Below, in pieces: positions 3,611-57,503 of a stretch of 64,000 nt of DNA. Positions within the stretch are counted from its first letter, which is position 1, and each line of letters starts with the position of its first letter. The position numbers were made by a program, and so were the translations under genes. The notes beneath the pieces were generated by a model. The model saw only the letters and a list, made by a program, of their open reading frames with translations. It did not search any database and was not told where the DNA came from. This DNA comes from an uncultured Gammaproteobacteria bacterium (GTDB taxonomy: Bacteria; Patescibacteriota; Microgenomatia; JAMCZE01): assembly GCA_964576435.1 (NCBI GenBank), contig CAZNUP010000002.1, forward strand, positions 107,302-171,301, in the 5' to 3' direction.

Positions 3611-3997
3611 GTGACAAAATTTGTTCCAATTGAAGAAGTTTATGAGATCCACGAAGCAATAATTAAACAAGTTGGAACGAAGGCTTCAGTTAGGGATTTT
3701 ACACTTCTACATTCAGCAGTTGAAAGACCAAAGGCTACATTTGATGGAAAAGATCTCTATCCTACAATTTTTACTAAAGCAGCAGCTCTTCTTCAATCGA
3801 TTTGTTTAAATCACCCTTTTACAGATGGGAATAAACGTTCTGCTTGGTTATCTACCAAAAGGTTCCTATTTATTAACGGGTATCATTTAAGAGCTGAACC
3901 CAAGGAGGGAGCTAATTTCATGGTTTATGTGGATAATAGTAAGCCGGAACTCTTGGAAATTGCTCGTTGGCTTAAAGATCACTCCAAAAAGAACTAA
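3611..3997 (+). CDS. doc: Doc (death-on-curing) toxin, Fic-fold kinase
   Basis: Diagnostic Doc/Fic motif HPFTDGNKRSA. 128 aa. Immediately follows the small antitoxin ORF. Confidence 0.8.
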   Translation: MTKFVPIEEVYEIHEAIIKQVGTKASVRDFTLLHSAVERPKATFDGKDLYPTIFTKAAALLQSICLNHPFTDGNKRSAWLSTKRFLFINGYHLRAEPKEGANFMVYVDNSKPELLEIARWLKDHSKKN

Positions 3998-11379: not shown

Positions 11380-12627
11380 ATGAGCTTAGTTACTAAAGAT
11401 AACGAGCGCGGCATCGGAGTTGAACCGGTTAATTCTGTTGTGCTGGAGGGCCTAACAGGTAGACAATATAAAAAATTGGGAATTACACTTTTGGCAATCA
11501 TTGCTGCAAGTTGTAGTAGTGCCCCCCGAACTACTAATGCTATGGAGCCGGATCGGGAATTGGGTATTTCAAATTCGCCAGCAGAGTTAGTTACGCAAAC
11601 TCCTGCAGCTCATTATGGGGTAGATTATTCTAATAAAAATTTGATGCCGGTTGTAGGAATACAGGTTCCTACTGGGTCTGCGTTGGAGACTGTCGTGGCA
11701 ATAGAAACTAGGGGCATACCCGGTTTACCTACTGCAACACCTGAATCTACAAAAACTCCAGAGCCTAGTGTGACACCATTTCCCACAGAGACAGTTGCTC
11801 CCACTGAAACAGATTTGCCTACTAATACGCCTACCTTAGAGGTGACAGCCACTGATGTGCCAACTGATACTGCTGTGGTAGTGGCATCTCCTACAGATGT
11901 TCCACAACCAACGGAGATAGCAACCGCAACAGATATTCCAACTGTAGTTTTAGAACCAACCGTGGTTTCAACTTCCACGCCCGATATTCCACCCACAGTG
12001 GTTTCTCCTGATGCAAAATTTGAAGCTATCGCAAATTCAGTGGAGATGAGATTTGCAAATCCAGATGATGCTGCAAAAGTAAGAAAAGCTATAGTAGAAA
12101 TAGGCAAAAAGGGACCTCATAAGGATTGGGTAGTTGATGATTTTGATCCTGAATTTCAAGCTAAATGGGCAGAAAATTTCCCAACTATTCCTCTTGAAAT
12201 CGCTGTTAAAACAATTAATGAAGATGTGATGAAACTTTTGGTTGGAAAAGACTCCGCTACTGGTGTGAAGTGGGTAAGTTATATTGGTGACAGAGTAACT
12301 TGTTCAGCAACTTGCTTTTCTATAGATTCTTCCAAAGGAATAAATTTCATCGAGATCGATAGATCTTATCTGGACGGAGCTAATATGAAGAAACCTGAAA
12401 TCGGGCTAGAAAGTGCTATCCAAAAGGAAACACAGGCTTTTCCAATCGTGTTTGGTCTATGGCGTCATAACTCTACATTAAGTGCAGAGCAACTTGGCAG
12501 GGCGGCTGATACTTTGGGGTTGATGCAGTCTTATTACTACATTTTGAATTACAGCCCTGAAGATACAGAAGCTGCAAACTTTTTAAGGCAGCGAGCTCTG
12601 GAAGGTGGATCACTTGCATCTAATTAA
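11380..12627 (+). CDS. Hypothetical lipoprotein-like surface protein with a Pro/Thr-rich linker
   Basis: N-terminal TM/lipobox-like AASCSS. Then about 120 aa of PT/VPT repeats. Then a globular C-terminal domain. Confidence 0.45.
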   Translation: MSLVTKDNERGIGVEPVNSVVLEGLTGRQYKKLGITLLAIIAASCSSAPRTTNAMEPDRELGISNSPAELVTQTPAAHYGVDYSNKNLMPVVGIQVPTGSALETVVAIETRGIPGLPTATPESTKTPEPSVTPFPTETVAPTETDLPTNTPTLEVTATDVPTDTAVVVASPTDVPQPTEIATATDIPTVVLEPTVVSTSTPDIPPTVVSPDAKFEAIANSVEMRFANPDDAAKVRKAIVEIGKKGPHKDWVVDDFDPEFQAKWAENFPTIPLEIAVKTINEDVMKLLVGKDSATGVKWVSYIGDRVTCSATCFSIDSSKGINFIEIDRSYLDGANMKKPEIGLESAIQKETQAFPIVFGLWRHNSTLSAEQLGRAADTLGLMQSYYYILNYSPEDTEAANFLRQRALEGGSLASN

Positions 12628-12694
12628 GTAACAATAGTCGAGTCTTCTCTTCCCCTAATTGCTTTAAGACATAACATCCAGTTATCATGATTGA

Positions 12695-13105
12695 ATGTCC
12701 AAGTTGGATTCTCGTCAAAAAAGAAAAAAAATAATAACTATTTGCTTAGTGCTTCTGTTATTGGCTGCTGGAGTGGTAATAAAATCTAAACCTCTTTTTT
12801 CTGATGTACCTAAGCAGGAGATTCGAGGTCCGAGAGGGCAAATAATAAACAATGGACTTAATATTTATGTCAGGGAACCAATTGATGGGGCGGTTGTAAT
12901 ACACAATCAGGTTGTTATAAGTGGGGAGATATCTGAACCGACCGATTTTAAGATTAACGGTAAGTCTTATAACACAAATGCGGCGGGTATTTTCAAAGAA
13001 ATTATTGAGCTAAGCCCTGGATTAAATTCTGTTGATATTGTTGCGTCTAAGGGTGGAAGGAGTGGTATTAAAAAAATGTCAATTACATACGAACCGATCA
13101 ATTGA
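12695..13105 (+). CDS. Hypothetical membrane-anchored protein
   Basis: ORF track. N-terminal TM. Confidence 0.35.
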   Translation: MSKLDSRQKRKKIITICLVLLLLAAGVVIKSKPLFSDVPKQEIRGPRGQIINNGLNIYVREPIDGAVVIHNQVVISGEISEPTDFKINGKSYNTNAAGIFKEIIELSPGLNSVDIVASKGGRSGIKKMSITYEPIN

Positions 13106-13146
13106 CTTGATTCTCAAGACTAATGTGAACTATATTTAAAAGACAG

Positions 13147-15171
13147 GTGAAAAAATATTTTTTTGGTTTTGCTATTTTTATAGCAATTAATATTATTGGG
13201 GCTATTATTGTTCAAAACTTTAATGTTGCTTATGCTGGGTGTGAGCCTAGGGAGTGTTCGAGCGCCAGTCAATGTGGTGGAGGTGGGTGGAAATGCCAAT
13301 CTTTTTGTTGTGTACCACCTGCTCCGTCTGGTGGTGGTGGGGGAACAGCTAGTCTTCCTCCATCGACATCGGGTACTCAGCCCAATGTTCCACAGACTAA
13401 TGCATGTCAAGGGTGTGGATGTTGTAATAATTCTGGAACAGGATGTGCTGCGTGTGCTGGTGGGGGACCTGGGATAATTAGAAGAATTGTACATATTAAC
13501 TATCCTGGCCCAAGTGGTGCCTTTACAATTGGAGATTCGCCGGCGTGTGGTAATTATATTTTTGATTATGGATTTTCTGTTAATATGCCAGGTGCAACTG
13601 TGGAAGGGGGATGCGGGACATATACAATTACGGTTGCGACTCCTCCTGTTGGAGAAACGATTAATTGGAATTTCACAGTTACAGCTCCTTCAGGATATGA
13701 ATTTCCTACAGTTAATGCATATAGTGATAACTTTGGAACCCCGTTTGGAACCAGGAACTATCAAGATACTTCGACTGTAAACTACACATATAGTACTATT
13801 CAGGATGGTAATACATCTTTTGTTTTATATTTACCAACATTTGTTTGTAAGAACACTAAGACGAAAGTGTATTACAAAACATCAAGTACAAGTACTAATT
13901 GGACGGAAGTAACTTCCAATGATCAAGTAGTTGTGGACCCAAATGGTTCACCGATTTTTGTTGCAGCAACAGTGACAAATTCAAGTAACCAAAATTTACA
14001 TCCCACTGATATTGCTGACTATATCAATGGGAATATATCCATTGTCAGAGACGCTTCAACACCTGTTTCAGGACTTACAAATATTAATGCAGATACAAGC
14101 TATTTGTGGGAATATAATTTTACGGGTCCACGAACTTATCGAGCAGTTTTTACCAAAGCATCAAATAATCATCCATGGTGTTCATCTTCTAGTTTTAGAT
14201 TTATTCTAAGCCCAGCTGTAGTATCTCCAAGTCCAAGTCCAAGTCCTTCCCCAAGTCCAAGTCCTTTGCCAACTCCTTCTTCCGTAAATACAAGTTATTT
14301 CAAAACCTTTGGGGGTGGAGTGGTTGCTGCTGGCATAACTGGTAAGGTGGTTGATGCTAAATTGCCATTTATTACGGATTTTATTTCGGCCAATTTATCA
14401 GGAGCACAAACGACAAGTGCTGGGCCAGTTTCTGCTAAATCCGATATTCAGAGTGGTACTGGAAAATTTTCTCAGCAACCAAATGGCAGCTTATCTAAAG
14501 GGTGGAATCTTCTTGGATATCAGACTGGGAGCTCGGCTCTTGGTGGGGGCGACTATGTGAAATTCAAGGAATCATTTTTCAAACTTGGTAATGTCTCAGA
14601 CATTAACTATTGTGACACAACTGGTCCACTTTCTGGGGGTCAAACATTTAAAGTCTTCTGTTACACAAATGGAGGTACAAGTTTACGCGCCACAATTAGC
14701 AATGCTTTAACTGATTCATCAGGGGCGCAATTTGTTGTTTTGTTGCCTGATCCACTGATGACTAATTTTAGTACTGCAAGCCTTGGTGTTCCTGTTGGCG
14801 GAGTTAACGGTAAGCACCTCTTAGCTTTTTTACCTATGGGTTTAACAATCACCAACGACGTGTTGGTTAGTTCTTCAACTAATTCTACGGCAACATTTAT
14901 CGTAGATGGAAATATTGATGTTGCTCCTTCTGTTGGAGTAGTGGATGGGGCTTATTTACTTAGTGGGAACTTTAATACGGGAATTAACACGTCAGCGGTT
15001 ACAGGTCGAGGAATGGTATTTGCCATTAGTGATAGCTCACAAATAAACTTCCAGAGAAGTCCAACTAACGCTATTGGTGAGAGTTGGTTATATGAACCCA
15101 AATATTTGTCTGTTTTGTCAAGAATGCTTACCAAACCTGCAGTCCAGTGGAGTGAGCTTGCTCCTAAATAA
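13147..15171 (+). CDS. Large secreted/surface protein (674 aa) with a Cys-rich N-terminal module and an (SP)n linker
   Basis: Signal/TM at the N-terminus. CEPRECSSASQCGGGGWKCQSFCC...CQGCGCC. SPSPSPSPSPSPSP encoded by a hexanucleotide repeat. Confidence 0.5.
   Translation: MKKYFFGFAIFIAINIIGAIIVQNFNVAYAGCEPRECSSASQCGGGGWKCQSFCCVPPAPSGGGGGTASLPPSTSGTQPNVPQTNACQGCGCCNNSGTGCAACAGGGPGIIRRIVHINYPGPSGAFTIGDSPACGNYIFDYGFSVNMPGATVEGGCGTYTITVATPPVGETINWNFTVTAPSGYEFPTVNAYSDNFGTPFGTRNYQDTSTVNYTYSTIQDGNTSFVLYLPTFVCKNTKTKVYYKTSSTSTNWTEVTSNDQVVVDPNGSPIFVAATVTNSSNQNLHPTDIADYINGNISIVRDASTPVSGLTNINADTSYLWEYNFTGPRTYRAVFTKASNNHPWCSSSSFRFILSPAVVSPSPSPSPSPSPSPLPTPSSVNTSYFKTFGGGVVAAGITGKVVDAKLPFITDFISANLSGAQTTSAGPVSAKSDIQSGTGKFSQQPNGSLSKGWNLLGYQTGSSALGGGDYVKFKESFFKLGNVSDINYCDTTGPLSGGQTFKVFCYTNGGTSLRATISNALTDSSGAQFVVLLPDPLMTNFSTASLGVPVGGVNGKHLLAFLPMGLTITNDVLVSSSTNSTATFIVDGNIDVAPSVGVVDGAYLLSGNFNTGINTSAVTGRGMVFAISDSSQINFQRSPTNAIGESWLYEPKYLSVLSRMLTKPAVQWSELAPK
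14225..14266 (+). repeat. Hexanucleotide tandem repeat (agtcca/agtcct, about 7 units) encoding the (SP)n linker
   Basis: ccaagtccaagtccaagtccttccccaagtccaagtcc read directly from the sequence. Confidence 0.5.
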
Positions 15172-15225
15172 AATGGGTGTTTCAGGTTGTTGCAATTTAT
15201 TTAGATTTTGATTTAAACTTCAAGT

Positions 15226-16524
15226 ATGGCCTTTGGAAAAAGACAGATAATTGCGGCTTTTTTAGAAAAAGATAATGTCAAACTTCTTGCGTTTGAAATC
15301 TCTGGTAAAAGTGTATCAAGAATTTTTGGAGGCCAGGTAAGTTTTGGAGAAGATACTTTAAGAGATGCTTTTATTGCCGATCCAGTTAAGTTTTCTACTC
15401 AAGTTAAGGGGGTTCTAGCTCAAAAACCGCCACTATCAGAAATAACTGAAGGATATCTATTTTTGCATCCTGATAAGACTTTCATTAAAGCTTTACCACC
15501 AGCTGAATCAGTTGATGCGTTTGTTAGGTCATTACCTTTTTTCAAAGAAGAATTAGTTATTCAGGAACCGGCAGTTCAAACTGGAGCTCCTGTTTCAGGT
15601 CAAGTTAATTATGTGGCTTTTGAAAAAAAGCTAGTTGAAGATTTTGAGAGACCATTTCTTGAATCTGGGAAAAAGATTTTAACTGTTAATTCGGCAGTTA
15701 GCCTTCTTGTTAAGAAGTTTCCGCAGACAGGAAGGTATCTTTTGGTTTTGCCATTTGAGAAGGATGTTTGTGTTGCGGCTTGTCAGGACGGAGTAATCTT
15801 GGACATTGCAACATTTCCAAAAGATGTGTGGGTGGGAAGACTTAATGAATTTAGAATGGGGAAGGGTTTTTCAGATATATCCAATGTGTTTGTAGTAGGA
15901 GCTTTGGAAATGGGTGCGGGGGATAAATTGCGAAATGAGCAACACTTAAACGTTACTGAAAATATTCCAGGAGATGTTTACGACCTGTCAGTTCAATCTG
16001 TGCTTTTGGGAACTGGTGCAACACCAAGTGCTACTGGTTCAGGTCCAAAATTTCAGATGCCAAAGATTCCTGGTGGAAAATTTGTGTTTCTGATTTTGGC
16101 AGCGATCATTGGTTTTGTTTTAGCGTTTCTTATTCTTAAGAGTCTGCTTGGTGGAAAGATTCCAGGTACGCCGATTGGTCAAACGCCAAGTCCAACACCA
16201 AGCATGCAAGAACCAACTCCATCTCCTACACCAGAAGCAAAGCCTGCCGACTTTAAGGTGATAGTTTTAAATGGAACTACAGTTCCTGGAGAGGCAGGAG
16301 CCCTTGGAGAGACTTTGACTGGACTTGGGTATGATGTTATTGAAACTGCAAACGCAACAACGTCGGGATTTGTGGCAACGAGATTGAGAGTTACGCAAGA
16401 TGTTCCAGAAAGCATAATTACACAGCTTAAAGAAACTATTCTTGAGACATACAAAGAAGTGACGCAAGAAGAACTTACTGACAGTGATGCGCAGGTTGAG
16501 ATAATTATTGGAGAGAAGAAATAG
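15226..16524 (+). CDS. Membrane protein with a C-terminal LytR_C-like domain
   Basis: Central TM. The C-terminal FKVIVLNGTTVPGEAGALGETLTGLGYDV resembles the LytR C-terminal domain. Confidence 0.4.
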   Translation: MAFGKRQIIAAFLEKDNVKLLAFEISGKSVSRIFGGQVSFGEDTLRDAFIADPVKFSTQVKGVLAQKPPLSEITEGYLFLHPDKTFIKALPPAESVDAFVRSLPFFKEELVIQEPAVQTGAPVSGQVNYVAFEKKLVEDFERPFLESGKKILTVNSAVSLLVKKFPQTGRYLLVLPFEKDVCVAACQDGVILDIATFPKDVWVGRLNEFRMGKGFSDISNVFVVGALEMGAGDKLRNEQHLNVTENIPGDVYDLSVQSVLLGTGATPSATGSGPKFQMPKIPGGKFVFLILAAIIGFVLAFLILKSLLGGKIPGTPIGQTPSPTPSMQEPTPSPTPEAKPADFKVIVLNGTTVPGEAGALGETLTGLGYDVIETANATTSGFVATRLRVTQDVPESIITQLKETILETYKEVTQEELTDSDAQVEIIIGEKK

Positions 16525-16600: not shown

Positions 16601-17413
16601 TTAGAAATTAGAATTTTGTGCAAAGTAGGCTTTTGGAAGCAAATTGAAATCTGCTCCATTTGCTACATAAACATACCCTGGTTTGGAAGTAATTGGGTTA
16701 TTAGCCCCTATTTTCCTCCAGTTAGTTTGAATGTTTGGTTTGTTTGTTTCTTTTGGATAGAAACATTGTAAAACCTTAGCTTTTCTATCTTCATCTGCGC
16801 CAATGAAATAGACATAGTCAGCACCTTCTCTAAGTTTTGGTTGTCCAGCGATCCAGTGAGTTCCTGTTGGATGACTCACATCGGGAGTTTTACCATCCCA
16901 TCTTTTTCCTGGTGCATTAAGCGCAGCACCTGGAGTTGGGCATGGGGCATAACCATCATCACAGTCACTTCCTGTGTAAGCAAAACCCCAGAAAGCGCCT
17001 TGAGTTGATCCATCAGTTAAATCTTTAACGTGGAAATCGACTTGTGCTGTTCCGCAGTCTTCTCTAGGAGTGTTTTGTGAAAGGGTTCTTGTAATTGACT
17101 CCTTGGGTTTAAGTGTCAATTTTTCAGTTCCTGATTTTTGGTTATTTCTGTTATTGCTGCATGGTTTTGCAACTTCACCGTAATCGCAAGTAAAAGCACC
17201 TTTTCCGATTTCGATATTTTTATTCACAGAACTTGTGTTCTTTACTTTGATTGTGGTTTCTGCCACGGTACCGATGTAACCAGAAAGGGTGGGGTAGCCG
17301 TTTTTGAGTCCGCTCCATTCGACCTTAATGTCACTTGCGGCGGAAACTTGTGAAGCTCCAAAAGTTAATGCTATAGCAAAAACAGTTAGTGTTAAGAGTG
17401 ATTTTTTAAACAT
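16601..17413 (-). CDS. Hypothetical secreted protein
   Basis: Signal peptide MFKKSLLTLTVFAIALTFGASQVSA. Confidence 0.45.
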   Translation of the reverse strand: MFKKSLLTLTVFAIALTFGASQVSAASDIKVEWSGLKNGYPTLSGYIGTVAETTIKVKNTSSVNKNIEIGKGAFTCDYGEVAKPCSNNRNNQKSGTEKLTLKPKESITRTLSQNTPREDCGTAQVDFHVKDLTDGSTQGAFWGFAYTGSDCDDGYAPCPTPGAALNAPGKRWDGKTPDVSHPTGTHWIAGQPKLREGADYVYFIGADEDRKAKVLQCFYPKETNKPNIQTNWRKIGANNPITSKPGYVYVANGADFNLLPKAYFAQNSNF

Positions 17414-17458: not shown

Positions 17459-18067
17459 ATGGATCTAATTATATCATATATTGAGTTGTTTTTTGCTTGT
17501 AGATATACTGAAATTATGGATATTCCACTGTCTGCATATTTAATGATGGACCTTAGAGGCTATACAAAATTTTTGATGCATGAAGATTTAAAAAATGTGC
17601 TTAGCAACGTGCATACTTACTACACAGAATTTGATAAGTGCGTGGAAAGAGGAGGGGGAGTGTTTTGTTCAGTGCTTGGTGATGCGGTGGGTGCAGTATT
17701 TCATGGAGAAGGTTGTGCTGATCGCGCTCTTAGAGCGGCTGGTGAGACCCTAGAGAGACTTAGGGAAATAGAATTTAGGTTTAAGGCAAATGCGGGGATA
17801 GATGTTGGACAAGTCATTGTAGATGGTTACAAATATTCGAAAGCTGAATTTATTTACCCTGTAGGAAAACCCGTTGTAATTGCATACAGACTTGAAGATT
17901 TAGCAGCTGACGTGGGAAGCGATGTGTTAATTACTGAGACTACGCTTGGAAAGTTGTCTGAAAAATTTAAGAAAAAATTTATTTCTGTGGGTGCTTTTCC
18001 AATAAAAGGCGTTGACGGAAATATTAATGTGTGGGGTGCTCAAGCAAGTGCTTTGATAACGGCCTAA
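17459..18067 (+). CDS. Class III nucleotidyl (adenylate/guanylate) cyclase catalytic domain protein, standalone
   Basis: MMDLRGYTKF (metal-binding Asp). GDAVGAVF (second Asp). GGG...RAL...Rxx pattern typical of cyclase homology (CHD) domains. The true start is probably the Met at about 17516. Confidence 0.5.
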   Translation: MDLIISYIELFFACRYTEIMDIPLSAYLMMDLRGYTKFLMHEDLKNVLSNVHTYYTEFDKCVERGGGVFCSVLGDAVGAVFHGEGCADRALRAAGETLERLREIEFRFKANAGIDVGQVIVDGYKYSKAEFIYPVGKPVVIAYRLEDLAADVGSDVLITETTLGKLSEKFKKKFISVGAFPIKGVDGNINVWGAQASALITA

Positions 18068-18070
18068 ATT

Positions 18071-18619
18071 TTAAGAAGTCCAGTTAGCGACATTCCACCA
18101 ATTTTTTATATAGTCAGCGCGAACGTTTTTGTATTTTAAATAGTAGGCGTGCTCCCAAACGTCTAAACCTGTAATTATGGACACTTTTGGATTTCTCATT
18201 AGCGGATTGTCCTGATTGGGAGTTGTTTCAATTTTAATTACACCATCTTCTTCAATTAACCATGCCCACCCGGAACCAAAAATACTTAGAGCTGCTGCAT
18301 TAAATGGTTCAATAAATTCTTGATATTTTTGTGGAACTTCCTCTTTGGCGGGGGACATTAAAGTCCAAAATAGGGAATGATTAAAGTGTCCGCCGGCATT
18401 GTTTCTGACTTTTTGTCTTATGTCTTCTGGAACTTGATCAAGACTTGTTACAAGTTTTGAAATATCCATATTTAAAAGCGTGTCGTTCCCAGCTAGTAGT
18501 TTATTTAGATTATCTACATAAGTTTGGTGATGTTTGTCGTGATGGAGATGCATAGTTTCTTCATCAATCCATGGTTCTAAAGCGTTATATGCGTAGGGAA
18601 GTGGGGGAAGAGTAAACAT
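18071..18619 (-). CDS. sodA: Superoxide dismutase (Fe/Mn)
   Basis: LPYAYNALEPWIDEETMHLHHDKHHQTYV...DVWEHAYYLKYKNVRADYI. Confidence 0.9.
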   Translation of the reverse strand: MFTLPPLPYAYNALEPWIDEETMHLHHDKHHQTYVDNLNKLLAGNDTLLNMDISKLVTSLDQVPEDIRQKVRNNAGGHFNHSLFWTLMSPAKEEVPQKYQEFIEPFNAAALSIFGSGWAWLIEEDGVIKIETTPNQDNPLMRNPKVSIITGLDVWEHAYYLKYKNVRADYIKNWWNVANWTS

Positions 18620-19301: not shown

Positions 19302-19847
19302 ATGTCTGCCCAAAAAGGATTTACTAAGATCGAGATTTTGATTGTGATTCTACTTGTTGGTGTTTTGATTGGAGTTTTAGTTTATGGATCTGGGACAATT
19401 CAAAAGAGACTTGGCGATGATCAACGGGTGAGATTTATGAAGGAGATTACAGTAGCTTTAGAAACTTATAGGGATGAGTTTGGGCATTATCCATATACAG
19501 GAGACAAGATTCCTAGTGGGACTGTAGTCTCTGGCAATGATAGTTTTAAGTCAATGATGACCGCTCTTGGTCAGGGGGGATTTTTGGAGGTGTCTAAACT
19601 TGTGGATCCCTCTTATGGGTCACTTTTTACGGAATTTGATGGGGTTGACTCATACGGGGATGGAGCCAAATTTAGTGAAGCAAATGGGCGATGTGATGGA
19701 AACAACGTGCTTGTTCAGAAGGTAAATAAGGGAGATGTTTTTTACGCATACTTTAGTCCTGACGGAAGAACTTATGTGATGTGTGTTGGTAAGGAAAATG
19801 GGGAAACTGGCGTATTTGTGAGTCCAAAATTTGACAAGCTTAATTAA
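19302..19847 (+). CDS. Type IV pilin-like / pseudopilin (prepilin N-terminal methylation motif)
   Basis: MSAQKGFTKIEILIVILLVGVLIGVL: G-F-T-x-I-E followed by a hydrophobic helix. Confidence 0.65.
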   Translation: MSAQKGFTKIEILIVILLVGVLIGVLVYGSGTIQKRLGDDQRVRFMKEITVALETYRDEFGHYPYTGDKIPSGTVVSGNDSFKSMMTALGQGGFLEVSKLVDPSYGSLFTEFDGVDSYGDGAKFSEANGRCDGNNVLVQKVNKGDVFYAYFSPDGRTYVMCVGKENGETGVFVSPKFDKLN

Positions 19848-19865
19848 ATTTTAGAAACTGGATAT

Positions 19866-20216
19866 ATGAAGATTGTTAGTTTGCTTTCGATGGTAATGAT
19901 TGTTGGGATTTTAGGGATGGCTGTGTTTTTTGTATCTAATAGACAGACCAGTGTTGGACTGAATGTTAAGGCGTCTCCGAGCGTAACTATTACAGGAACA
20001 GTTGTTTCAAGTGATCCACAAGGGTGCGCGAAGAATTTTTACCTTGGGTGCTATGTGTTATTTGCTTCTAAGGGAGAGAAATATTTCTTAGTTGAAGAAT
20101 CGGTGCCTGTTAATTTGTCCACGTTGGTTGGTAAAGAGGTTCAACTTACGGGGAAGGTCGCTGCACTTAAGGGTAGGGATGTGTTGATGGTTGGATCGGT
20201 GAAGTCTGTCCGCTAA
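19866..20216 (+). CDS. Hypothetical membrane-anchored protein
   Basis: ORF track. N-terminal TM. Confidence 0.35.
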   Translation: MKIVSLLSMVMIVGILGMAVFFVSNRQTSVGLNVKASPSVTITGTVVSSDPQGCAKNFYLGCYVLFASKGEKYFLVEESVPVNLSTLVGKEVQLTGKVAALKGRDVLMVGSVKSVR

Positions 20217-25499: not shown

Positions 25500-25613
25500 A
25501 TGCAGAGGTTTACCAACAAATTCGAACGTGTTTTCGTAGAAAATGTCTTTATGTTGGCTCGCTCCGCTCGCCTCTATCTTAGTGTCGACCCGCTGCGGCG
25601 GGGGCCTCCGCTT
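25500..25613 (+). repeat. Repeat A, left arm of inverted-repeat pair A/A' (about 113 bp, GC-rich)
   Basis: The reverse complement at 27045..27156 matches with a handful of mismatches and one 2-nt indel, as read by eye. Confidence 0.6.
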
Positions 25614-25763
25614 TAACGAATTTTTTGCGCGCGCGACACAGCACAGGAGCTTCCCGGCCAATTTGGGCGAAATTGGCCGCAATCGGCCGGAATGGTGGTA
25701 TTCGGCCGCTTGGGTTCATTGTGTGATTGCACAACAGGGATTTTGGTTTAGTGAAGTCATGTT

Positions 25764-25813
25764 AGCATAGTGCTATGCTGTAATGCGAGTATTCGTTCCA
25801 CAAATGTTATAAT
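25764..25813 (+). promoter_or_regulatory. Perfect palindrome AGCATAGtgCTATGCT (25764-25779), a candidate operator, plus an extended -10 TGtTATAAT (25805-25813) 9 nt before the ATG of ORF 25823
   Basis: Read directly from the sequence. Upstream are GC-rich hairpins: CGGCCAATTTgggcgAAATTGGCCG and CGGCCGGAAT...ATTCGGCCG. Confidence 0.35.
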
Positions 25814-25822
25814 TGAAGCGTT

Positions 25823-26227
25823 ATGGCAACACCTGAAGAAAAGCTACTTAATTGGGCTAGGGAAAGGGAAGCTAATCCTCCTTCTCCATCTGTTCCAAAA
25901 CCTCCACTTGGTCAAGCCAAGGACGTTTTGATGCATTTTTTGGGAGGCTCGATTGGTTCCAGGAAGGTTACTTTAAGCGAAGGAAAGCCAACTTCAAAGA
26001 CTGCGGATGAGTTGAGGACAGAATTAAAAGAGGCACTTGGAGAATTTGACACGACAACTTTACCGGAAGATCGAGCTAGACAATATCAACAGATTGTTGG
26101 AGAACTAGATGGAAATCTGGATGATTTAACTCATTTGAATTTGATTGTAAAACACTATCACAATTTTGCCGCAGATCGTCCCCTGGATGCTCCTGAAATT
26201 AAAAAAGTGCGAAGAAAGCAAAAATAA
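25823..26227 (+). CDS. Hypothetical protein (134 aa), cargo of the A/A' segment
   Basis: ORF track. No family recognised by eye. Confidence 0.4.
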   Translation: MATPEEKLLNWAREREANPPSPSVPKPPLGQAKDVLMHFLGGSIGSRKVTLSEGKPTSKTADELRTELKEALGEFDTTTLPEDRARQYQQIVGELDGNLDDLTHLNLIVKHYHNFAADRPLDAPEIKKVRRKQK

Positions 26228-26237
26228 TATGTATTTC

Positions 26238-26903
26238 TCATGTTGTCACTTTTCTAGCGCGGTATGCTTCAATTCGTTTTGGAAGATCGTATAAATATTC
26301 GAGCAAGTAGTCTAGAAATTCAGTAATGTCGTTTGCGTCTTTAGGGTCGACACCGGAATCATTTGGGTCAGAGTGAGTTGCCTCATTCCCCAACAATCTA
26401 ACTTCATTGGACCAGTCAATCATTAGTGGGGGTAATAAACCCTGTTTTCCTAGATATTCAATTTCCTCCAAAAGATTTGCGCCTTTTGCCTTTTTATCTC
26501 GAAGCGCTGATTGCATCGAACTACGTGCCATTACCGAAGCTGCATCCCAATTCTCGTCAGTGAGGGATTTATGAGCTTGTAGCCAGTTTCTGCCAACGGC
26601 CGGTGGCCAGTGATCGGGGGATTTCGTGTATTTTAATGGAAAAGGAAGGACGCGATAATCATGGAGACTGTGACTACCACTGTATTCGCTTGATGACCAT
26701 AACACCATCACATAGCCAGCACAATTGCCGCATTTTAATGTGTCAAAATTAAGAACCTTACGGTTATTTGATTTTTTCTTTTCAGAATGATGTGCTGTTG
26801 AAAAATTACCTCTTTCCCCACAGAATGCGCATTCAATTCGATATATTGCAAGCGAGTCACCGGATTCTCCAATATGTTCACCGAGATCCCACCAACTGTT
26901 CAT
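26238..26903 (-). CDS. Zinc-ribbon protein with a C-terminal DUF4145-like domain, cargo of the A/A' segment
   Basis: CAFCGERGNF...CGNCAGY Cys pairs at the N-terminus. C-terminal LLGNEATH...LLEYLYDLP fits the DUF4145 GNxxAH pattern as recalled. Confidence 0.45.
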   Translation of the reverse strand: MNSWWDLGEHIGESGDSLAIYRIECAFCGERGNFSTAHHSEKKKSNNRKVLNFDTLKCGNCAGYVMVLWSSSEYSGSHSLHDYRVLPFPLKYTKSPDHWPPAVGRNWLQAHKSLTDENWDAASVMARSSMQSALRDKKAKGANLLEEIEYLGKQGLLPPLMIDWSNEVRLLGNEATHSDPNDSGVDPKDANDITEFLDYLLEYLYDLPKRIEAYRARKVTT

Positions 26904-27044
26904 AGCGGCATTTTACCAGAATTTTTGTGTCGGTTTGTATTGTTTTGTCTTCTTGAAAACTTCTTGACTTAAGACGACACTGAAAAAAAATCGCGAAAAT
27001 TTTTGCGTTTTCTTTCACACACAGGATTCGAGCCGACCTTTTTC

Positions 27045-27156
27045 AAAGCGGAGGCCCGCCGCAGCGGGCCGACACTAAGATGACGGCGAGCGGAGCGAGC
27101 CAACATAAAGACATTTTCTACGAAAACACGTTCGAATTTGTTGGTAAACCTCTGCA
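27045..27156 (-). repeat. Repeat A', right arm, inverted copy of A. Similarity to the tRNA-Tyr locus copy extends left to about 27020.
   Basis: Reverse complement of 25500..25613. 27022-27038 cgagccgaccttttt is the reverse complement of aaaaaggtcggctcg found in B' and at 40878. Confidence 0.6.
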
Positions 27157-27257
27157 CAGAGAGACACAGACTCACAAGAAGGGGCGGCGATCCGCGCGCC
27201 CGCAACCGCGCGGAGCGCCGCAAAGGGCTGTTTCAAAACCGCGCTGAGCTGCCGATT
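27152..27257 (+). repeat. Repeat B, left arm of pair B/B'. It overlaps the end of A' by 5 nt (ctgca).
   Basis: ctgcacagagagacacagactcacaagaaggggcggcgatccgcgcgcccgcaaccgcgcggagcgccgcaaagggctgtttcaaaaccgcgctgagctgccgatt. Its reverse complement lies at 28712..28827. Confidence 0.6.
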
Positions 27258-27329
27258 AGAAAATTAAAAAGCAGGAAAGAAAACGCAAAAATTTATTTAG
27301 GAACAGGAAAGTTACTCAAAACTGCACAA

Positions 27330-28949
27330 ATGAAATATATTGGCTATTGCCGAAAATCAACAGACGAAAAAGACAGACAGGTTTTGTCGATTGACGCACA
27401 AATTGCAGAACTCAAAGAATTTGCTCAGCGTGAACGCTTAGATGTTGTGGATTTTGTTGTTGAGGCAAAGACTGCCAAAGAACCGGGCAGGGAAAAATTT
27501 GCCGAAGTCTTGAAAAGAATTGAAAAAGACGAAGCACAAGGTATCCTTAGCTGGCATCCAGACAGACTTGCAAGGAATTCCGTGGATGGTGGGAGAGTGA
27601 TCTATCTTTTGGACACCGGGAAACTTTTGGATCTCAAATTTCCTTCATTTTGGTTCCAGAACACCCCTCAAGGCAAATTCATGCTCGGAATGGCCTTCAA
27701 TCAGAGCAAATATTATGTGGATTCCTTATCTGAAAATGTCAAAAGGGGAATCAGACAAAAACTTCGGCAGGGAATTTGGCCCAAACAAGCGCCGCTTGGC
27801 TACAAAAACAATCCCAAGACTAAAGGAATTGACATTGACTCCGAAACTGCACCTGTTGTCAAAAGAGCTTTCGCTCTTTTTGCCCAAGGCAACAAATCTT
27901 TCACTGAAATTGCCGATTTTTTCTTGAAGCATGGGATCACAGGAAAAACCGGGAAGAGATTACATTTGTCCGAAACCAAGAGACTACTGGGGAAAACTTT
28001 CTATATTGGCCATTTCAAATTTGGTGGTGAGCTTTATCAAGGAAGCCATAAGTGTTTTATCTCAAAATCCACTTTTCAAAAAGTTCAAGAGAGGCTGAAG
28101 AAAATTGAGCGACCAAGAAGGAAAGGCCACAATTTTCCTCTCGTTGGAATCGCTAAGTGTGGAGAATGTGGTGGTGCAATAACTGCCGAATCTCATCCCA
28201 GATTCTATCCCCGAACGGGAAGAAAAGTGGATTTTGTCTATTACCGCTGCACGAAAAAATTTGGCACATGCTCTCAGCGCTACACTCCGGCAGTAGATTT
28301 TGAGTCACAACTTGAAGAGTTGTTGTTTTCTGCATCTCTGCCAAATTCCTGGCAGAAAAAATGGAAAGATTGGTTGGATCGGGATGAAAAACTGGCGAAA
28401 GAATCCGCAGAGAAAAACCTGGCTGGTTATCAAGTCAGGATTGCTGACTTAGACAAAAAACAAAATCTACTGCTAGATACTTTCTTAGAGGGGACAATTG
28501 ATGAGGGAATGTTCAAAACGAAAAAGAACGAAATGTTTGAGAGAAAACAGAAACTTGAAGAAGAACTTTTGCAAGTGAAAGCTAGTGGCGCAGGTTGGCT
28601 CGAACCAATGAAAGACTTCATGGAAACGGCTTCACAGCTGGAAAAAATCGCGCGCGCAAAAAATTCCAGCGAAGATTTGCGAAACTTCGCCAAAAAGGTC
28701 GGCTCGAACTACTTTTTACAGGATCAGCAGCTCAGCGCGGTTTTGAAACAGCCCTTTGCGGCGCTCCGCGCGGTTGCGGGCGCGCGGATCGCCGCCCCTT
28801 CTTGTGAGTCTGTGTCTCTCTGTGCAGGGGCGGAAAGAATCGAACTTTCGTTGCGGGTTTTGGAGACTCGCGTCCTACCACTGAACGACGCCCCTTTATC
28901 CTGTTATTTTATCATTTTTATATGTTGGTGGTATAATCTATTTGTTTAA
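27330..28949 (+). CDS. Large serine recombinase (resolvase/invertase N-domain, recombinase domain and zinc ribbon)
   Basis: MKYIGYCRKSTDEKDRQVLSIDAQ (catalytic Ser region). ...ILSWHPDRLARN. Zinc ribbon CGECGG...YYRC. The track ORF opens at 27138 (no upstream stop); the Met at 27330 is preferred. The last ~80 codons read through repeat B' and the antisense tRNA-Trp before the first stop at 28950. Confidence 0.8.
   Translation: MKYIGYCRKSTDEKDRQVLSIDAQIAELKEFAQRERLDVVDFVVEAKTAKEPGREKFAEVLKRIEKDEAQGILSWHPDRLARNSVDGGRVIYLLDTGKLLDLKFPSFWFQNTPQGKFMLGMAFNQSKYYVDSLSENVKRGIRQKLRQGIWPKQAPLGYKNNPKTKGIDIDSETAPVVKRAFALFAQGNKSFTEIADFFLKHGITGKTGKRLHLSETKRLLGKTFYIGHFKFGGELYQGSHKCFISKSTFQKVQERLKKIERPRRKGHNFPLVGIAKCGECGGAITAESHPRFYPRTGRKVDFVYYRCTKKFGTCSQRYTPAVDFESQLEELLFSASLPNSWQKKWKDWLDRDEKLAKESAEKNLAGYQVRIADLDKKQNLLLDTFLEGTIDEGMFKTKKNEMFERKQKLEEELLQVKASGAGWLEPMKDFMETASQLEKIARAKNSSEDLRNFAKKVGSNYFLQDQQLSAVLKQPFAALRAVAGARIAAPSCESVSLCAGAERIELSLRVLETRVLPLNDAPLSCYFIIFICWWYNLFV
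28712..28827 (-). repeat. Repeat B', inverted copy of B. It ends 3 nt inside the 3' end of tRNA-Trp.
   Basis: Reverse complement of 27152..27257 at about 95% identity by eye. Direct similarity to the tRNA-Tyr flank (40878..41011) starts at 28684. Confidence 0.6.
28825..28895 (-). tRNA. tRNA-Trp (anticodon CCA)
   Basis: Manual fold. Acceptor AGGGGCG/CGCCCCT. D-stem GTTC/GGAC. Anticodon loop CU-CCA-AA. T-arm GAAAG-TTCGATT-CTTTC. No encoded CCA. Confidence 0.8.
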
Positions 28950-28997: not shown

Positions 28998-29804
28998 ATG
29001 GATAGTGGAAAAGTTTCAGCAGAACTTTTTGTTCCTGTTGATGGAAATGAAATTTTAAAACAAACGCTTGAGAGAGTTAATACTTCTGTTGAAGTTAAGA
29101 CTTTATGGCGAATCATGAATGTCAATGCAATTGAAAGACTAGGGATGACAGATCATGGTCAGGTGCATTTTCAAATTGTTGCTAATTCAGCCCTTCGAAT
29201 TTTAAGACTTCTTAGGAACCACCACATAGAAGCATCAATAACAAAGAATTTTGAGCTTGATTTTAGATATGCCGAGGTCGTAGTCTTTCTTGCTAGTGTT
29301 TGCCATGATCTGGGGATGTCTGTTTCAAGAGAGGGACATGAAGAATTTAGTCTTTTTTTGACAAATGAGATTTTACACAAACTTTTGGATTTTTTACCAG
29401 AAGAAGAAAGAACAATTGTGATTTCAGAAACACTGCATGCAATTATTTCTCATAGAGCAGGGGGCAGGCCTTTGACAATTGAAGCTGGGGTGGTTCGGAT
29501 TGCTGACTCACTTGATATGACAAAGGGTAGGACAAGAGTATCTTATGAAGCCGGGAAATTTGATATTCATAGTGTGTCAGCTAATGCGATTGAACAAGTT
29601 GATATTGGGGAAGGGAAAGAATTTCCGATTGAAATTAAAATTATGATGACAAATCCAGCGGGGATTTTTCAAGTGGATGAGCTGATGGGATCAAAACTTG
29701 CTAAGAGTGGAATTGAGAGCTATGTGCATGTAAATGTATTTTTGGAAAACGATGGGAAGAGGAAATTGTTTAAGAGTTATGGTGATCCTGTATCGCCAGC
29801 TTAA
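28998..29804 (+). CDS. HD-domain phosphohydrolase family protein
   Basis: HGQVHFQIV ... CHDLGM ... (H..HD..D pattern). Confidence 0.55.
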   Translation: MDSGKVSAELFVPVDGNEILKQTLERVNTSVEVKTLWRIMNVNAIERLGMTDHGQVHFQIVANSALRILRLLRNHHIEASITKNFELDFRYAEVVVFLASVCHDLGMSVSREGHEEFSLFLTNEILHKLLDFLPEEERTIVISETLHAIISHRAGGRPLTIEAGVVRIADSLDMTKGRTRVSYEAGKFDIHSVSANAIEQVDIGEGKEFPIEIKIMMTNPAGIFQVDELMGSKLAKSGIESYVHVNVFLENDGKRKLFKSYGDPVSPA

Positions 29805-42903: not shown

Positions 42904-43160
42904 TGAGCCAACAAGGATACGTGTCTCCGCTATTTGTAATTATCTCAGGGGTTTTTATCATTGTCTTAGTGGCGACTGTAGCTTTGAACGCAAAATCACT
43001 GGACTTTGGTTCAAGAGCTAGCGAGACAGTCAAAAAAGTTAACTTATTACCCTCTGAAAACGTAGATATTTCTTGTGGAAATGGGGGAAAACTTAAGGTT
43101 GTAAAAAGTGGAGATTCCGCTTATCAACTTAGCTGTACCGGGTTTTTGCCTTCAAATTGA
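42840..43160 (+). CDS. Hypothetical membrane-anchored protein
   Basis: ORF track. One TM. Confidence 0.3.
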   Translation: MCIMSCDVQSEIHSKSCYTGLMSQQGYVSPLFVIISGVFIIVLVATVALNAKSLDFGSRASETVKKVNLLPSENVDISCGNGGKLKVVKSGDSAYQLSCTGFLPSN

Positions 43161-43894
43161 ACGATATCCAGGACTAGTTTTTCATTTTCTAAATGACATT
43201 TTCTAATTAGCATCCGTTTTCCTTCTTTTATGGTCCAAAGACCTGGCCAGGGAGTCATTGCCCTATATTTGTTATATGTCTCAACTTTTTCTAAATCCTC
43301 GTATTTTACAAAACCATCATCTTTAGTGAGCATTTTGGTAAAGGTGGCTTTTTGGTGGTCTTGGGGGGTCAGTTTGCCTGAAAAGTCAATATTGGGCAGT
43401 TCTTTGGCGACTTCTATAAACAATCTTGTATAAAGAGTGTTTGTGGTGTCATCTGGAAAGATAGGGTAATCTTTTTGCCAGAGGATTGGACCAGTGTCCA
43501 AGGTTTTTTCGAGCTTAAAAATGGTGACCGAGGTTTTATTCCTGCCTTCTAGTAAAGCATATTGGACAGGGGAGGCGCCTCTTAATTCTGGTAGCTTGGA
43601 AAAGTGGATATTAAAAGTGCCGATTTTAGCTCTGTTAAAGACATCTTCTTTAATGATCTCTCCAAAATCGGCAACGATTCCTAAATCATAATCTAAGTCA
43701 TTTAACTCTTTAATAGTTTTTACTAAAATTTTGTGTTCATTTGCCCATGTTTTGGTTGCTGAAGGAGTCAAAACTTTTTTTCTCCCCACTGGCTTATCAG
43801 GGCGAGTTACTACCATTTTTAGGTCGAAATTGACCTTTAATGATTCTAAGATTGGTATGCAGTAGTTGGATGTGCCGAAAAAGATTGTTGTCAT
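43124..43894 (-). CDS. fmt: Methionyl-tRNA formyltransferase (short form)
   Basis: MTTIFFGTSNYCIPILESL...VVTRPDKPVGRKK...HFSKLPELRGASPVQYALLEG. C-terminal domain shortened. Confidence 0.75.
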   Translation of the reverse strand: MTTIFFGTSNYCIPILESLKVNFDLKMVVTRPDKPVGRKKVLTPSATKTWANEHKILVKTIKELNDLDYDLGIVADFGEIIKEDVFNRAKIGTFNIHFSKLPELRGASPVQYALLEGRNKTSVTIFKLEKTLDTGPILWQKDYPIFPDDTTNTLYTRLFIEVAKELPNIDFSGKLTPQDHQKATFTKMLTKDDGFVKYEDLEKVETYNKYRAMTPWPGLWTIKEGKRMLIRKCHLENEKLVLDIVQFEGKNPVQLS

Positions 43895-43953
43895 ATTTTC
43901 TATTCTAACATTTCAGACTTGACATTTTTATATTTTGCCTTATAATTAATACT

Positions 43954-44139
43954 ATGAGTGATCGTAATGAACAGTCAAAAGTTTCCATTGGGGACGTTTC
44001 ACCAGAATTGGCTAAAATATTAGCGAAATTTGCAGCTAGGGGTCAAACACCGGATGCTGATACAGTTGCAATGTTTTTAAAAGCTGCAGCACCAAGGGCG
44101 GTCGAGCTTCTAGATAAGAAGGGTAAAAAACAGGGTTAA
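43954..44139 (+). CDS. Small hypothetical protein (61 aa)
   Basis: ORF track only. Confidence 0.25.
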   Translation: MSDRNEQSKVSIGDVSPELAKILAKFAARGQTPDADTVAMFLKAAAPRAVELLDKKGKKQG

Positions 44140-44681
44140 ATTTCTACCTCATCCCACTCTTCTTCACTTTTGTTTTTCGTGATTTTATAGAGTTTTCCCT
44201 GCTGTTCTAGAATTCTTTCAATAAAAAGTTTACCGTCTAGATGGTCCATCTCGTGCTGAATCACAGTTGCTGCAAAGCCTTCAAATGTTTCTTCTTTTGT
44301 TTCTCCGGTTTCTGTTTGGTATTTTAGTTTCAAATTGGTCCATCTTTTAACTACACCGTAATAGTCGGGTTTTGACAAGCAACCTTCGAGAGGGGATTTC
44401 TTGGTTGTTTTATTTGGTTGAAGTTCTTCACTATGACTTAATATTTGAGGGTTAATAAAAACACGGACCTCGTCTGTTTTTTTTGTTCCAAATCTGGCCA
44501 CAAATATTTTCCATGGGAGATTTACTTGATTTGCAGCAAGACCAACCCCTTCTGGATCCTTTTGAGCAAGCATTGTTTCAATCATTTCTGAAACGATTTT
44601 TTTAAGTTTATCGTCAAAGAAATAGACATCTGTGGCGCTAGTTCTCAATATTTCATTTGGCGCTTGAACAATAGTGTACAT
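44136..44681 (-). CDS. def: Peptide deformylase
   Basis: GVGLAANQV, EGCLS and HEMDHLDG motifs. Confidence 0.85.
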   Translation of the reverse strand: MYTIVQAPNEILRTSATDVYFFDDKLKKIVSEMIETMLAQKDPEGVGLAANQVNLPWKIFVARFGTKKTDEVRVFINPQILSHSEELQPNKTTKKSPLEGCLSKPDYYGVVKRWTNLKLKYQTETGETKEETFEGFAATVIQHEMDHLDGKLFIERILEQQGKLYKITKNKSEEEWDEVEI

Positions 44682-55766: not shown

Positions 55767-57503
55767 ATGTCTATTGGAGATAATTTATCCGATTTTATTT
55801 CGAACCCAGTTTCTAAAACGAGGAGGAAATCTGGCGTTGATCTTAGTAAAAGGGATTTTTCTGTGCGCATGCTTTCTGTGAGACTAGTTGGACTTGGGGT
55901 GTTTTTTGTTCTTCTTGCTGGACTTGCAAGGACACAGGTTTTGGAAGGAGCTTATTATAGAGATTTATCTAATGGAAATAGGGTGCGAGAGGTTTTCCTT
56001 CCAGCTCCTAGGGGAATTATTTATGATCGGAATGGAAAACCATTAGTTTCTAATATTCCAGCATATAGATTAGTTCGGTGCACAGATCAGGGGAGAAAGT
56101 GTGAAGCTGATACAATTTCCCGTGACCAGGCGATTGACTTTCAAACCTCTTCACAAAACAGCAGTGAGAAAGTTGATTTGGTAGTCGATTCATCAAGAGA
56201 ATACTTGGAAAGGGAAGCCACAGCTCATGCTCTTGGATACGTAAGTGAAATCTCGGCCCAAGAACTAACTGATAATCCAGAATATGTTCCTGGAGATAAA
56301 ATAGGGCGTGGAGGGATTGAAGAGAGCTACGAGGTACCACTTCGTGGGGAACGAGGCAAGGAGCTTGTGGAAGTGGATGCGCTGGGTAGGAGACTTAAGG
56401 TGCTGTCTGCAGTTTTACCAAAACCCGGTAATAATTTAAAACTGGGGCTGGATATTAATTTACAAAAGACTGCTTATGAAGCAATTAAAGAAAAATCTGA
56501 GGGGGCGGCGATTATTGCTACAAATCCAAAAACGGGAGAGGTGTTAGCAGTTGCAAGCAATCCATCGTTCGATCCCAATATATTCACAGATTTTTCTATT
56601 GATTCAAGCGAAAGGAATAGAGTAATTAATTCTCTCTTTAGTGATAGTTCGAGGCCGTTATTTGATCGAGCAATTTCGGGAACTTACCCACCAGGGTCTA
56701 CGTTTAAAGTTATTACATCAACGGCGGGACTTGAGAATAAAAAGATTGATGAGGATTTTACGATTGAAGATACTGGGATTATTGTGATTGGTCCTTATAA
56801 GTTTGCAAACTGGAAGTTTTTACATGATGGAGGAACGCAAGGGGTTCTAAATGTGGTTGGGGCACTTAAGGTTAGTAATGATATTTTCTTTTATAAACTT
56901 GGGGAGAAAGTTGGGCTTGATGGTTTAGTTTCGTGGATGCAGAAGTATGGACTTGCTCGGAAAACAGGAATTGATTTACCGGGAGAGATGTCGGGGGTTG
57001 TGCCAACAAAAGATTGGAGATCAAAATTTGCCCCTGAGTGGTATTTAGGGGATACATTCCACTTAGCTATTGGACAAGGAAAACTTCTTGTTACTCCAGT
57101 TCAAATTAATGCGTGGACAAATGTGGTCGCTAATGGGGGAAAGTTGTGTAAGCCACATGTGGTTCAAGGAGTTTCAGATTGTTCAGATCTTGGAATTAGT
57201 AAAAAAACACTTGGACTTATAAAGGAAGGGCTTATTGAAGCTTGCTCAGCTGGTGGAACTGCTTATCCACTTTTTAACTTTAAAGATCCGAAAGACAAAG
57301 ATAAAACGATTCAAATTGCCTGCAAAACTGGAACTGCGGAAATAGGAGACTTAGATAATAAGACACATGCTTGGCTCACTGCTTATGCGCCCGCTAATAA
57401 TCCAGAAATTTCCGTTACTGTGCTTGTTGAAAAGGGGGGAGAAGGGTCTGATACGGCTGCACCAATTGTAAAAGATGTGTTGACTAAGTATTTCTCTCTT
57501 TGA
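55767..57503 (+). CDS. mrdA: Penicillin-binding protein 2 (class B transpeptidase)
   Basis: STFKVIT (SxxK), KVSND (SxN) and KTGTA motifs. N-terminal TM. Confidence 0.85.
   Translation: MSIGDNLSDFISNPVSKTRRKSGVDLSKRDFSVRMLSVRLVGLGVFFVLLAGLARTQVLEGAYYRDLSNGNRVREVFLPAPRGIIYDRNGKPLVSNIPAYRLVRCTDQGRKCEADTISRDQAIDFQTSSQNSSEKVDLVVDSSREYLEREATAHALGYVSEISAQELTDNPEYVPGDKIGRGGIEESYEVPLRGERGKELVEVDALGRRLKVLSAVLPKPGNNLKLGLDINLQKTAYEAIKEKSEGAAIIATNPKTGEVLAVASNPSFDPNIFTDFSIDSSERNRVINSLFSDSSRPLFDRAISGTYPPGSTFKVITSTAGLENKKIDEDFTIEDTGIIVIGPYKFANWKFLHDGGTQGVLNVVGALKVSNDIFFYKLGEKVGLDGLVSWMQKYGLARKTGIDLPGEMSGVVPTKDWRSKFAPEWYLGDTFHLAIGQGKLLVTPVQINAWTNVVANGGKLCKPHVVQGVSDCSDLGISKKTLGLIKEGLIEACSAGGTAYPLFNFKDPKDKDKTIQIACKTGTAEIGDLDNKTHAWLTAYAPANNPEISVTVLVEKGGEGSDTAAPIVKDVLTKYFSL

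Follow-up and report, generated by a model that had tools for sequence, protein, structure and literature searches.

A rare clade of standalone class III cyclase homology domains with an unusual, conserved active-site variant

In class III nucleotidyl cyclases the purine base is specified by a pair of residues, namely a Lys with an Asp or Thr for ATP, and a Glu with Cys, Gly or the like for GTP. Two-metal catalysis was reportedly described by Tesmer et al. in 1999, and the roles of an Asn and an Arg in the active site are said to have been described by Yan et al. in 1997. At least one member of the superfamily, Ma1120, is a standalone cyclase domain. This protein of Mycobacterium avium is active with a natural alanine (Ala164) at the Asn site and with the Arg (Arg168) kept, and its A164N mutant has sharply reduced or abolished activity (PMC4215837). 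A single small cyclase domain is also seen in clades B-E of the PycC cyclases of the antiphage Pycsar systems, in which selectivity residues have been defined for BcPycC (Y50/D94/R97), AnPycC (F60/K104/F109) and EaPycC (F100/R142/Q144) (PMC11224242). Here we analyze an open reading frame (ORF) at 17459..18067, on the plus strand, of a stretch of 64,000 nucleotides (henceforth the window; contig CAZNUP010000002.1 of assembly GCA_964576435.1, positions 107,302 to 171,301), deposited as an uncultured Gammaproteobacteria bacterium and placed by GTDB in the Patescibacteriota (Microgenomatia, JAMCZE01). We find that it encodes a standalone class III cyclase homology domain, without any other domain, which retains the metal- and phosphate-binding residues of the superfamily and lacks those that read the base and orient the ribose.

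A cyclase fold with a divergent active site

The ORF is present with a product of 202 amino acids, and its listed translation contains both the DLRGYT and the GDAVGAV motifs; a degenerate DNA pattern combining the two at fixed spacing matched the window once, against 0 matches expected from 100 shuffles. Residues are numbered throughout from the ATG at 17516, which gives a 183-residue form. The Pfam family Guanylate_cyc (PF00211) matches residues 29-188 of the 202-residue form (E 4e-4, 20.4 bits), and NCBIfam returned no match for the protein. A search of PDB sequences with the single protein recovered the photoactivated adenylyl cyclase OaPAC (3.6e-5) and Cya2 (6e-5), and a profile built from this protein and 12 relatives recovered OaPAC (1e-17), Cya2 (4.5e-16) and CyaB (1.8e-15). 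Three relatives (P0007, P0012 and P0036) carry PF00211 in their precomputed annotation, flagged as weak for the latter two. An AlphaFold model built from a 41-sequence alignment displays the cyclase fold with a predicted local distance difference test score (pLDDT) of 96.5 and a predicted template modeling score of 0.91; the single-sequence model reached a pLDDT of 31, and all structural statements made here rest on the alignment-based model. In Foldseek comparisons with the PDB its best match was OaPAC (1e-14, TM-score 0.84-0.86), followed by bPAC, CyaB, CyaC and Cya2. The fold comparison figures were 21.8 for bPAC, CyaC and CyaB, 21.4 for Rv1900c, 21.0 for Cya2, 20.6 for BcPycC, 19.8 for Ma1120, 17.0 for EaPycC, 16.5 for AnPycC, 16.2 for PaPycC and about 14 for GGDEF domains. 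A sequence-only reading of this locus had proposed a class III cyclase domain with both metal-binding Asp motifs and without a sensor or regulatory domain, and both proposals are borne out by the motifs, the Pfam and PDB matches, the modeled fold and the content of the protein.

An exact look-up of the 202-residue product gave no match, and a word-indexed search of 5.8 billion proteins recovered the protein itself as the sole match. An exhaustive HMMER search of 1.84 billion representatives yielded 1388 matches at E ≤ 1e-3, only 12 of them at E ≤ 1e-10, and the best of these matches are all standalone proteins of 175-223 residues with 24-35% identity to the query. Scans with the degenerate DNA pattern identified three true members in GTDB genomes and one in Joint Genome Institute (JGI) metagenomes, and found no match in the viral contigs of IMG/VR; the remaining pattern matches were false, for instance a recurring unrelated ORF of Pelagibacteraceae. 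The clade is rare and made up of standalone proteins of about 180 residues. We defined it by the closest HMMER relatives together with two members from genome contigs, 18 proteins in all; these and 150 other cyclase matches were aligned to a single profile, from which the residues at the functional sites were counted.

This comparison showed that the first metal/phosphate loop, DLRGYT (17549..17566, plus strand, as are all the codons given below), aligns to the DI(R/V)xF(T/S) loop of OaPAC and supplies the first metal-binding aspartate, D12 (17549-17551), which is present in 18/18 clade members and in 148/150 other cyclases. The arginine of the same loop, R14 (17555-17557), is kept in 17 of the 18 and in 126 of the 150. 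The second metal loop, SVLGDAVGAVF (17669..17701), holds S52, L54, D56 and G59. Its aspartate, the second metal ligand D56 (17681-17683), is likewise invariant in the clade and present in 149/150 of the others. S52 (17669-17671) occupies the site of the base-specifying Lys, where the clade has S, D, A or N and 103 of the 150 other cyclases have K; G59 (17690-17692), three residues after the second Asp, is Gly in all 18 and Met or Leu in 118 of the 150. A third segment, YPVGKPVVIAYRLE (17855..17896), which contains Y114, V121 and R125, corresponds in the hidden Markov model (HMM) alignment to ...YTILGDAVNVAARLE of OaPAC. Y114 (17855-17857) falls on the base-specifying Asp/Thr site, which is variously F, C, L, I, Y, S or T in the clade and T in 116/150 of the others. 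V121 (17876-17878) falls on the site of the transition-state Asn, which is I, V or F in 18/18 clade members, with no Asn among them, and N in 145/150 of the others. The transition-state arginine, R125 (17888-17890), is retained in 15 of the 18 and in 148 of the 150, and aligns to the Arg of ...VNVAARLE. Finally, K164 (18005..18007) in the C-terminal (L/I)KG motif is Lys in 17/18 clade members and Lys or Arg in 142/150 others; we take it to be the triphosphate-binding Lys of class III cyclases, equivalent to Lys1065 of mammalian adenylyl cyclase.

The columns invariant among the 18 members (D12, D56, L54, G55, G59, G48, G98 and G117) are those of the two metal loops plus a few structural glycines. 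On this alignment, the metal/phosphate half of the active site is strongly constrained and the base/ribose half has been rebuilt as an apolar pocket. The pair S52/Y114 matches neither the ATP nor the GTP rule. The sequence-only reading had expected the specificity residues to tell a purine from a pyrimidine cyclase; that expectation failed, as S52 and Y114 fit neither the adenine and guanine rules nor the published PycC determinants. The nucleotide used would accordingly not be predictable, as judged from these residues, by known base-specificity rules.

If the protein follows the established mechanism of the class III family, two chains would pair head to tail and create two active sites at their interface. 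In each of these D12 and D56 of one chain would hold two Mg2+ or Mn2+ ions and, with the DLRGYT loop and R14, would bind the triphosphate of the nucleoside triphosphate, with R125 and K164 of the partner chain stabilizing the transition state at the α-phosphate and the departing pyrophosphate. Attack by the 3'-OH of the ribose would then yield a 3',5'-cyclic nucleoside monophosphate (cNMP). The base and ribose would sit in the rebuilt apolar pocket lined by M10, S52, L54, G59, Y114 and V121, from which the usual Lys, Asp/Thr and Asn are gone. With no sensor domain, output may be set by expression, by the monomer-dimer equilibrium or by a small ligand.

Active enzyme, pseudo-enzyme or antiphage cyclase

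As conservation in the clade concentrates on the catalytic metal and phosphate residues, we favor an active enzyme. A single chain carries both the C1-type residues (the two Asp) and the C2-type residues (Arg and Lys), as in homodimeric cyclases. Our preferred interpretation, held with a confidence only a little better than even, is that the gene encodes a minimal, homodimeric, active and unregulated nucleotidyl cyclase of class III that belongs to a rare, divergent clade and has a remodeled apolar base pocket. Several observations weigh against it. The 20.4 bits of the single protein fall just under the 21.9-bit gathering score of the Pfam family; the whole clade is without the Asn that orients the ribose and the two residues that specify the base; three members lack the Arg as well, having F (P0002), N (P0004) or G (P0016) in its place; and neither Pfam searches of about 60 ORFs nor a CRP probe detected a cNMP receptor within the 64-kb window, the probe giving nothing better than E 0.11. 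Moreover, in a related genome with conserved gene order (locus L008, see below) the cyclase homolog is only 29% identical to the protein of the window, against 40-77% for the syntenic neighbors, and lies at a different location. Given this identity and location, the gene is fast-evolving and has changed its position, a behavior that is unusual among core signaling enzymes.

Some of these features sustain the main rival, which we regard as unlikely though deserving of serious weight: a degenerate cyclase-fold protein that still binds metal and nucleotide without cyclizing the latter, and acts as a nucleotide sensor or regulatory partner. Such a pseudo-cyclase would account for the uniformly hydrophobic residue at the Asn site (18/18), the loss of the base-reading Lys and Asp/Thr, the presence of the Arg in no more than 15 of 18 members and the rapid evolution of the clade. 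However, both metal-binding Asp are invariant over 18 members that are only 24-35% identical to the query, and the catalytic loops are the most conserved columns, which are usually the first to be lost in pseudo-enzymes. The sequence-only reading had taken the absence of the Asn and Arg transition-state stabilizers as the mark of a pseudo-cyclase; the outcome is half positive, the Arg being kept (R125) and the Asn lost (V121). Loss of the Asn does not prove a pseudo-cyclase, since Ma1120 shows that catalysis is possible with Ala at this site and since conservation in the clade is highest at the metal and phosphate residues.

Assuming that the protein is an active cyclase, its gene looks like one of the cell's own signaling or nucleotide-metabolism genes and not like part of a defense cassette; it is monocistronic, native in composition and chromosomal. 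One may go further and propose, more speculatively and as something we ourselves think rather doubtful, that the clade makes a signal other than cyclic AMP or cyclic GMP, such as a cyclic pyrimidine or another non-canonical product, which small-genome uncultured bacteria would use for signaling of their own, with a receptor of a type not yet recognized. The latter element is suggested by the lack of any known cNMP-binding domain nearby.

The hint in the sequence-only reading at an antiphage type of cyclase was not upheld by the features compared here. It would make the gene an orphan Pycsar-type pyrimidine cyclase with its effector encoded elsewhere or lost, a proposal that we consider improbable. 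In its favor, the best PADLOC match of the protein is to a PycC model (PDLC02367, E 6.5e-11, 40 bits), which all 13 of the 13 clade members tested match as well; further, the protein shares the single small domain of PycC clades B-E (PMC11224242), and its gene is fast-evolving and relocated. However, ten ordinary cyclases in which Lys, Thr, Asn and Arg are all present, used as a control, scored 52-83 bits on PDLC02367 and as much as 112 bits on another PycC model, PDLC00734, and because these exceed the score of our protein the PycC match is generic to the fold. The clade profile likewise scored 67 bits on OaPAC, 35 on Ma1120, 33 on BcPycC (7r65) and 23 on PaPycC (6yii), placing the protein, by score, nearer to ordinary adenylyl and guanylyl cyclases than to PycC. 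We also compared the positions that hold the PycC selectivity residues of clades B, D and E, namely two before the first Asp and four before, two before, one after and three after the second, with the metal-Asp numbering of BcPycC being inferred; here they hold M10, S52, L54, A57 and G59, none of which matches the published residues (PMC11224242). Nor is there an effector: the Pfam searches of the window revealed no cNMP-binding, TIR, GAF or similar domain, which extends to the whole window the earlier claim that no cNMP-binding effector is adjacent, and no cNMP-binding, TIR or transmembrane effector lies next to the gene here or beside the relatives in loci L001, L004, L005, L008, L013, L032 and L033, which have no neighbor family in common. 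Their contexts (def/fmt, leuS, ndk, glycosyltransferases) are not those of defense islands, and the cyclase gene of the window shows no sign of a defense-island or mobile context either, its neighbors being housekeeping genes, its composition native and IMG/VR without a match. We class the protein as a variant of the class III nucleotidyl cyclases and not as Pycsar. Least probable of all, and in our view very unlikely, is that it forms the C1-like, metal-binding half of a heterodimeric cyclase with a C2-like partner encoded elsewhere, as the presence of the two C1-type Asp and the lack of the C2-type Lys, Asp/Thr and Asn might suggest, since it retains the C2-type Arg and phosphate Lys and since no second cyclase-like ORF occurs in the window and no second copy in the locus of any relative. 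The clade profile had one other match in the window, at 57488-58123 (E 0.001), which is DprA and is therefore attributed to chance.

Gene layout, neighborhoods and evolution

The first in-frame ATG of the ORF lies 19 codons upstream of a second one at 17516, at which the homologs start. The possible N-terminal extension between them (17459..17515, plus strand) is unmatched in any relative, and the closest relatives begin 2-5 residues ahead of the first strand; the product from ATG 17516 begins MDIPLSAYLMMDLRGYT... and agrees in its start with them. Since the homologs start at this second ATG, the likely coding sequence of the cyclase domain is 17516..18067 (plus strand), the true product is probably the 183-residue form (183 codons plus stop), and the extension is probably not translated, as judged by comparison with the homologs. 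A consensus scan picked up a promoter-like site, TTGAGT and TATACT separated by 17 nt (17481..17509, plus strand), which ends 7 nt before this ATG; the signal is a weak one, the scan giving 4 sites against 2.7 expected in shuffles. If this putative promoter is real, the transcript would have little or no leader.

Upstream, the gene at 16601-17413 is divergent from the cyclase gene, has no match in Pfam and has an N-terminus that resembles a signal peptide when its translation is read by eye. Downstream, at 18071-18619, lies a convergent sodA (Fe/Mn superoxide dismutase), the stop codon of which is 3 nt from that of the cyclase gene. The cyclase gene is monocistronic, and its earlier placement beside sodA and genes for secreted proteins agrees with this layout. 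On either side (11380-16524 and 19302-20216) runs a series of large proteins without confident Pfam matches, among them a 674-residue protein rich in Cys and Pro/Ser, a LytR_C-domain protein and a protein with a prepilin-type N-terminal methylation motif; by eye these have a secreted or envelope-associated look. The GC content of the cyclase gene is 0.402, and 0.299 at third codon positions (GC3), against window means of 0.387±0.029 and 0.309±0.042, and its composition is native to the window. The gene content of the window is that of a housekeeping region of a chromosome, with NusG, the ribosomal proteins L11/L1/L10/L12, RNase HII, Ddl, a Mur ligase, MreBC, PBP2, DprA, TopA, PyrG, Def, Fmt and UppS. 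In public Logan data, three contigs from this strain (L017, L018 and L034), 100% identical to the window, end within the cyclase gene (17770-17838); we considered strain variation as the source of these breaks and rejected it, taking the 29-nt overlap between two of them as the sign of an assembler k-mer break.

The neighborhoods of the relatives are of a housekeeping type and not conserved. Glycosyltransferases and a radical SAM enzyme adjoin the cyclase homolog in L001, a sortase, peptidases and a helix-turn-helix protein in L004, a nucleoside deoxyribosyltransferase-like gene and a DHH phosphoesterase in L032, and ndk and nadD/nadE in L033. In L005 leuS overlaps the start of the cyclase gene by 4 nt; together with L013 this locus represents a pair of related genomes (L005 1293-4150, L013 7-2524), in both of which the homolog lies directly 3' of leucyl-tRNA synthetase with overlapping reading frames, and the two genes are probably co-transcribed there. 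An all-against-all comparison of the loci found no neighbor family common across them, the only shared gene order being the synteny between two related genomes. L008 and the window come from related organisms and share the order MreC-MreB, Wzy-TPR protein, polyprenyl synthase, def and fmt, with identities of 40% for MreC, 77% for MreB, 50% for the Wzy-TPR protein, 60% for the polyprenyl synthase, 58% for Def and 51% for Fmt. In L008 (5554-7589) the cyclase homolog lies between def and fmt in the order def-cyclase-fmt and overlaps fmt by 4 nt, whereas in the window (43124-44681) def and fmt are adjacent with a gap of 240 nt, no cyclase remnant was found between them, and the cyclase gene is instead beside sodA. 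The gene content of the window and its related loci includes a sortase, many PMT-type glycosyltransferases, pilin-like proteins and a LytR_C protein, at a GC content of about 38%. To our eye this does not resemble a typical gammaproteobacterium and may rather suit a small-genome bacterium of the CPR/Patescibacteria kind.

A few further features of the window deserve mention in their own right. Two nested pairs of inverted repeats of about 100 nt occupy 25501-28949. The arms 25501-25602 and 27055-27156 (96% identical) enclose an ORF without a Pfam match (25823-26227) and one for a DUF4145 protein (26238-26903), while the arms 27149-27256 and 28723-28830 (98%) are located at either end of an ORF for a large serine recombinase (27138-28949); this ORF has a GC3 of 0.44 against the window mean of 0.31 and overlaps a tRNA-Trp on the minus strand (28824-28895). 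Such an arrangement could be that of an invertible segment or of an integrated element. An IS200-like Y1 transposase gene (1217-1843) and a Fic/DOC family gene (3611-3997) are found beside the rplK-rplA-rplJ-rplL cluster, of which rplL is not followed by rpoB in the window. An HD-domain protein of 268 residues (28998-29804, E 8.5e-6) is encoded 11 kb from the cyclase gene, with no evidence of a link between them; some HD domains are nucleotide phosphodiesterases.

Relation to described cyclases

Should the clade be active, it would mean that the class III scaffold can do without the Asn and the two base-reading residues at the same time, would provide an added test case for how the cyclase fold encodes the choice of substrate, and would point to cyclic-nucleotide signaling in poorly studied small-genome bacteria; a search of the open-access literature found no paper that connects Patescibacteria to adenylate cyclase and cyclic nucleotides. 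Should it be inactive, it would represent one more pseudo-enzyme. For annotation there is a caution in either case, as the PADLOC PycC models match any class III cyclase domain and a PycC match without an effector gene does not amount to Pycsar.

Among described proteins, Ma1120 (4wp3/4wp9/5d0g), the minimal adenylyl cyclase of Mycobacterium avium, is alike in consisting of the cyclase domain only, without a sensor, and in having a small apolar residue (Ala) in place of the Asn with the Arg kept, for which V121 and R125 are the counterparts here (PMC4215837). It differs in retaining the ATP-specifying Lys101/Asp157, where our protein has Ser52/Tyr114, and is distant in sequence, as its 35 bits against the clade profile attest. 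The small, single-domain PycC cyclases of Pycsar clades B-E (BcPycC 7r65, AnPycC 8jsz, EaPycC 8jsf) resemble it in having a non-canonical base pocket. However, their genes adjoin one for a cNMP-binding effector, which this gene and its relatives are without, and they show no specific sequence affinity to it, their respective selectivity residues being unmatched. The best matches in both sequence and fold are the class IIIb domains, namely OaPAC, bPAC, Spirulina CyaC, Pseudomonas aeruginosa CyaB and Synechocystis Cya2, with which the clade shares the two metal loops, the Arg, the C-terminal KG motif and the length of the domain. Unlike the clade, these carry the Lys, the Thr (or its equivalent) and the Asn, and most of them are fused to sensor domains; in the clade the three sites are occupied by S/D/A/N, by an aromatic or apolar residue and by I/V/F, respectively, and Gly takes the place of Met/Leu three residues past the second Asp. 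Set beside its closest described counterparts, the protein combines an ordinary fold with an unusual active-site variant that is conserved throughout a rare clade.
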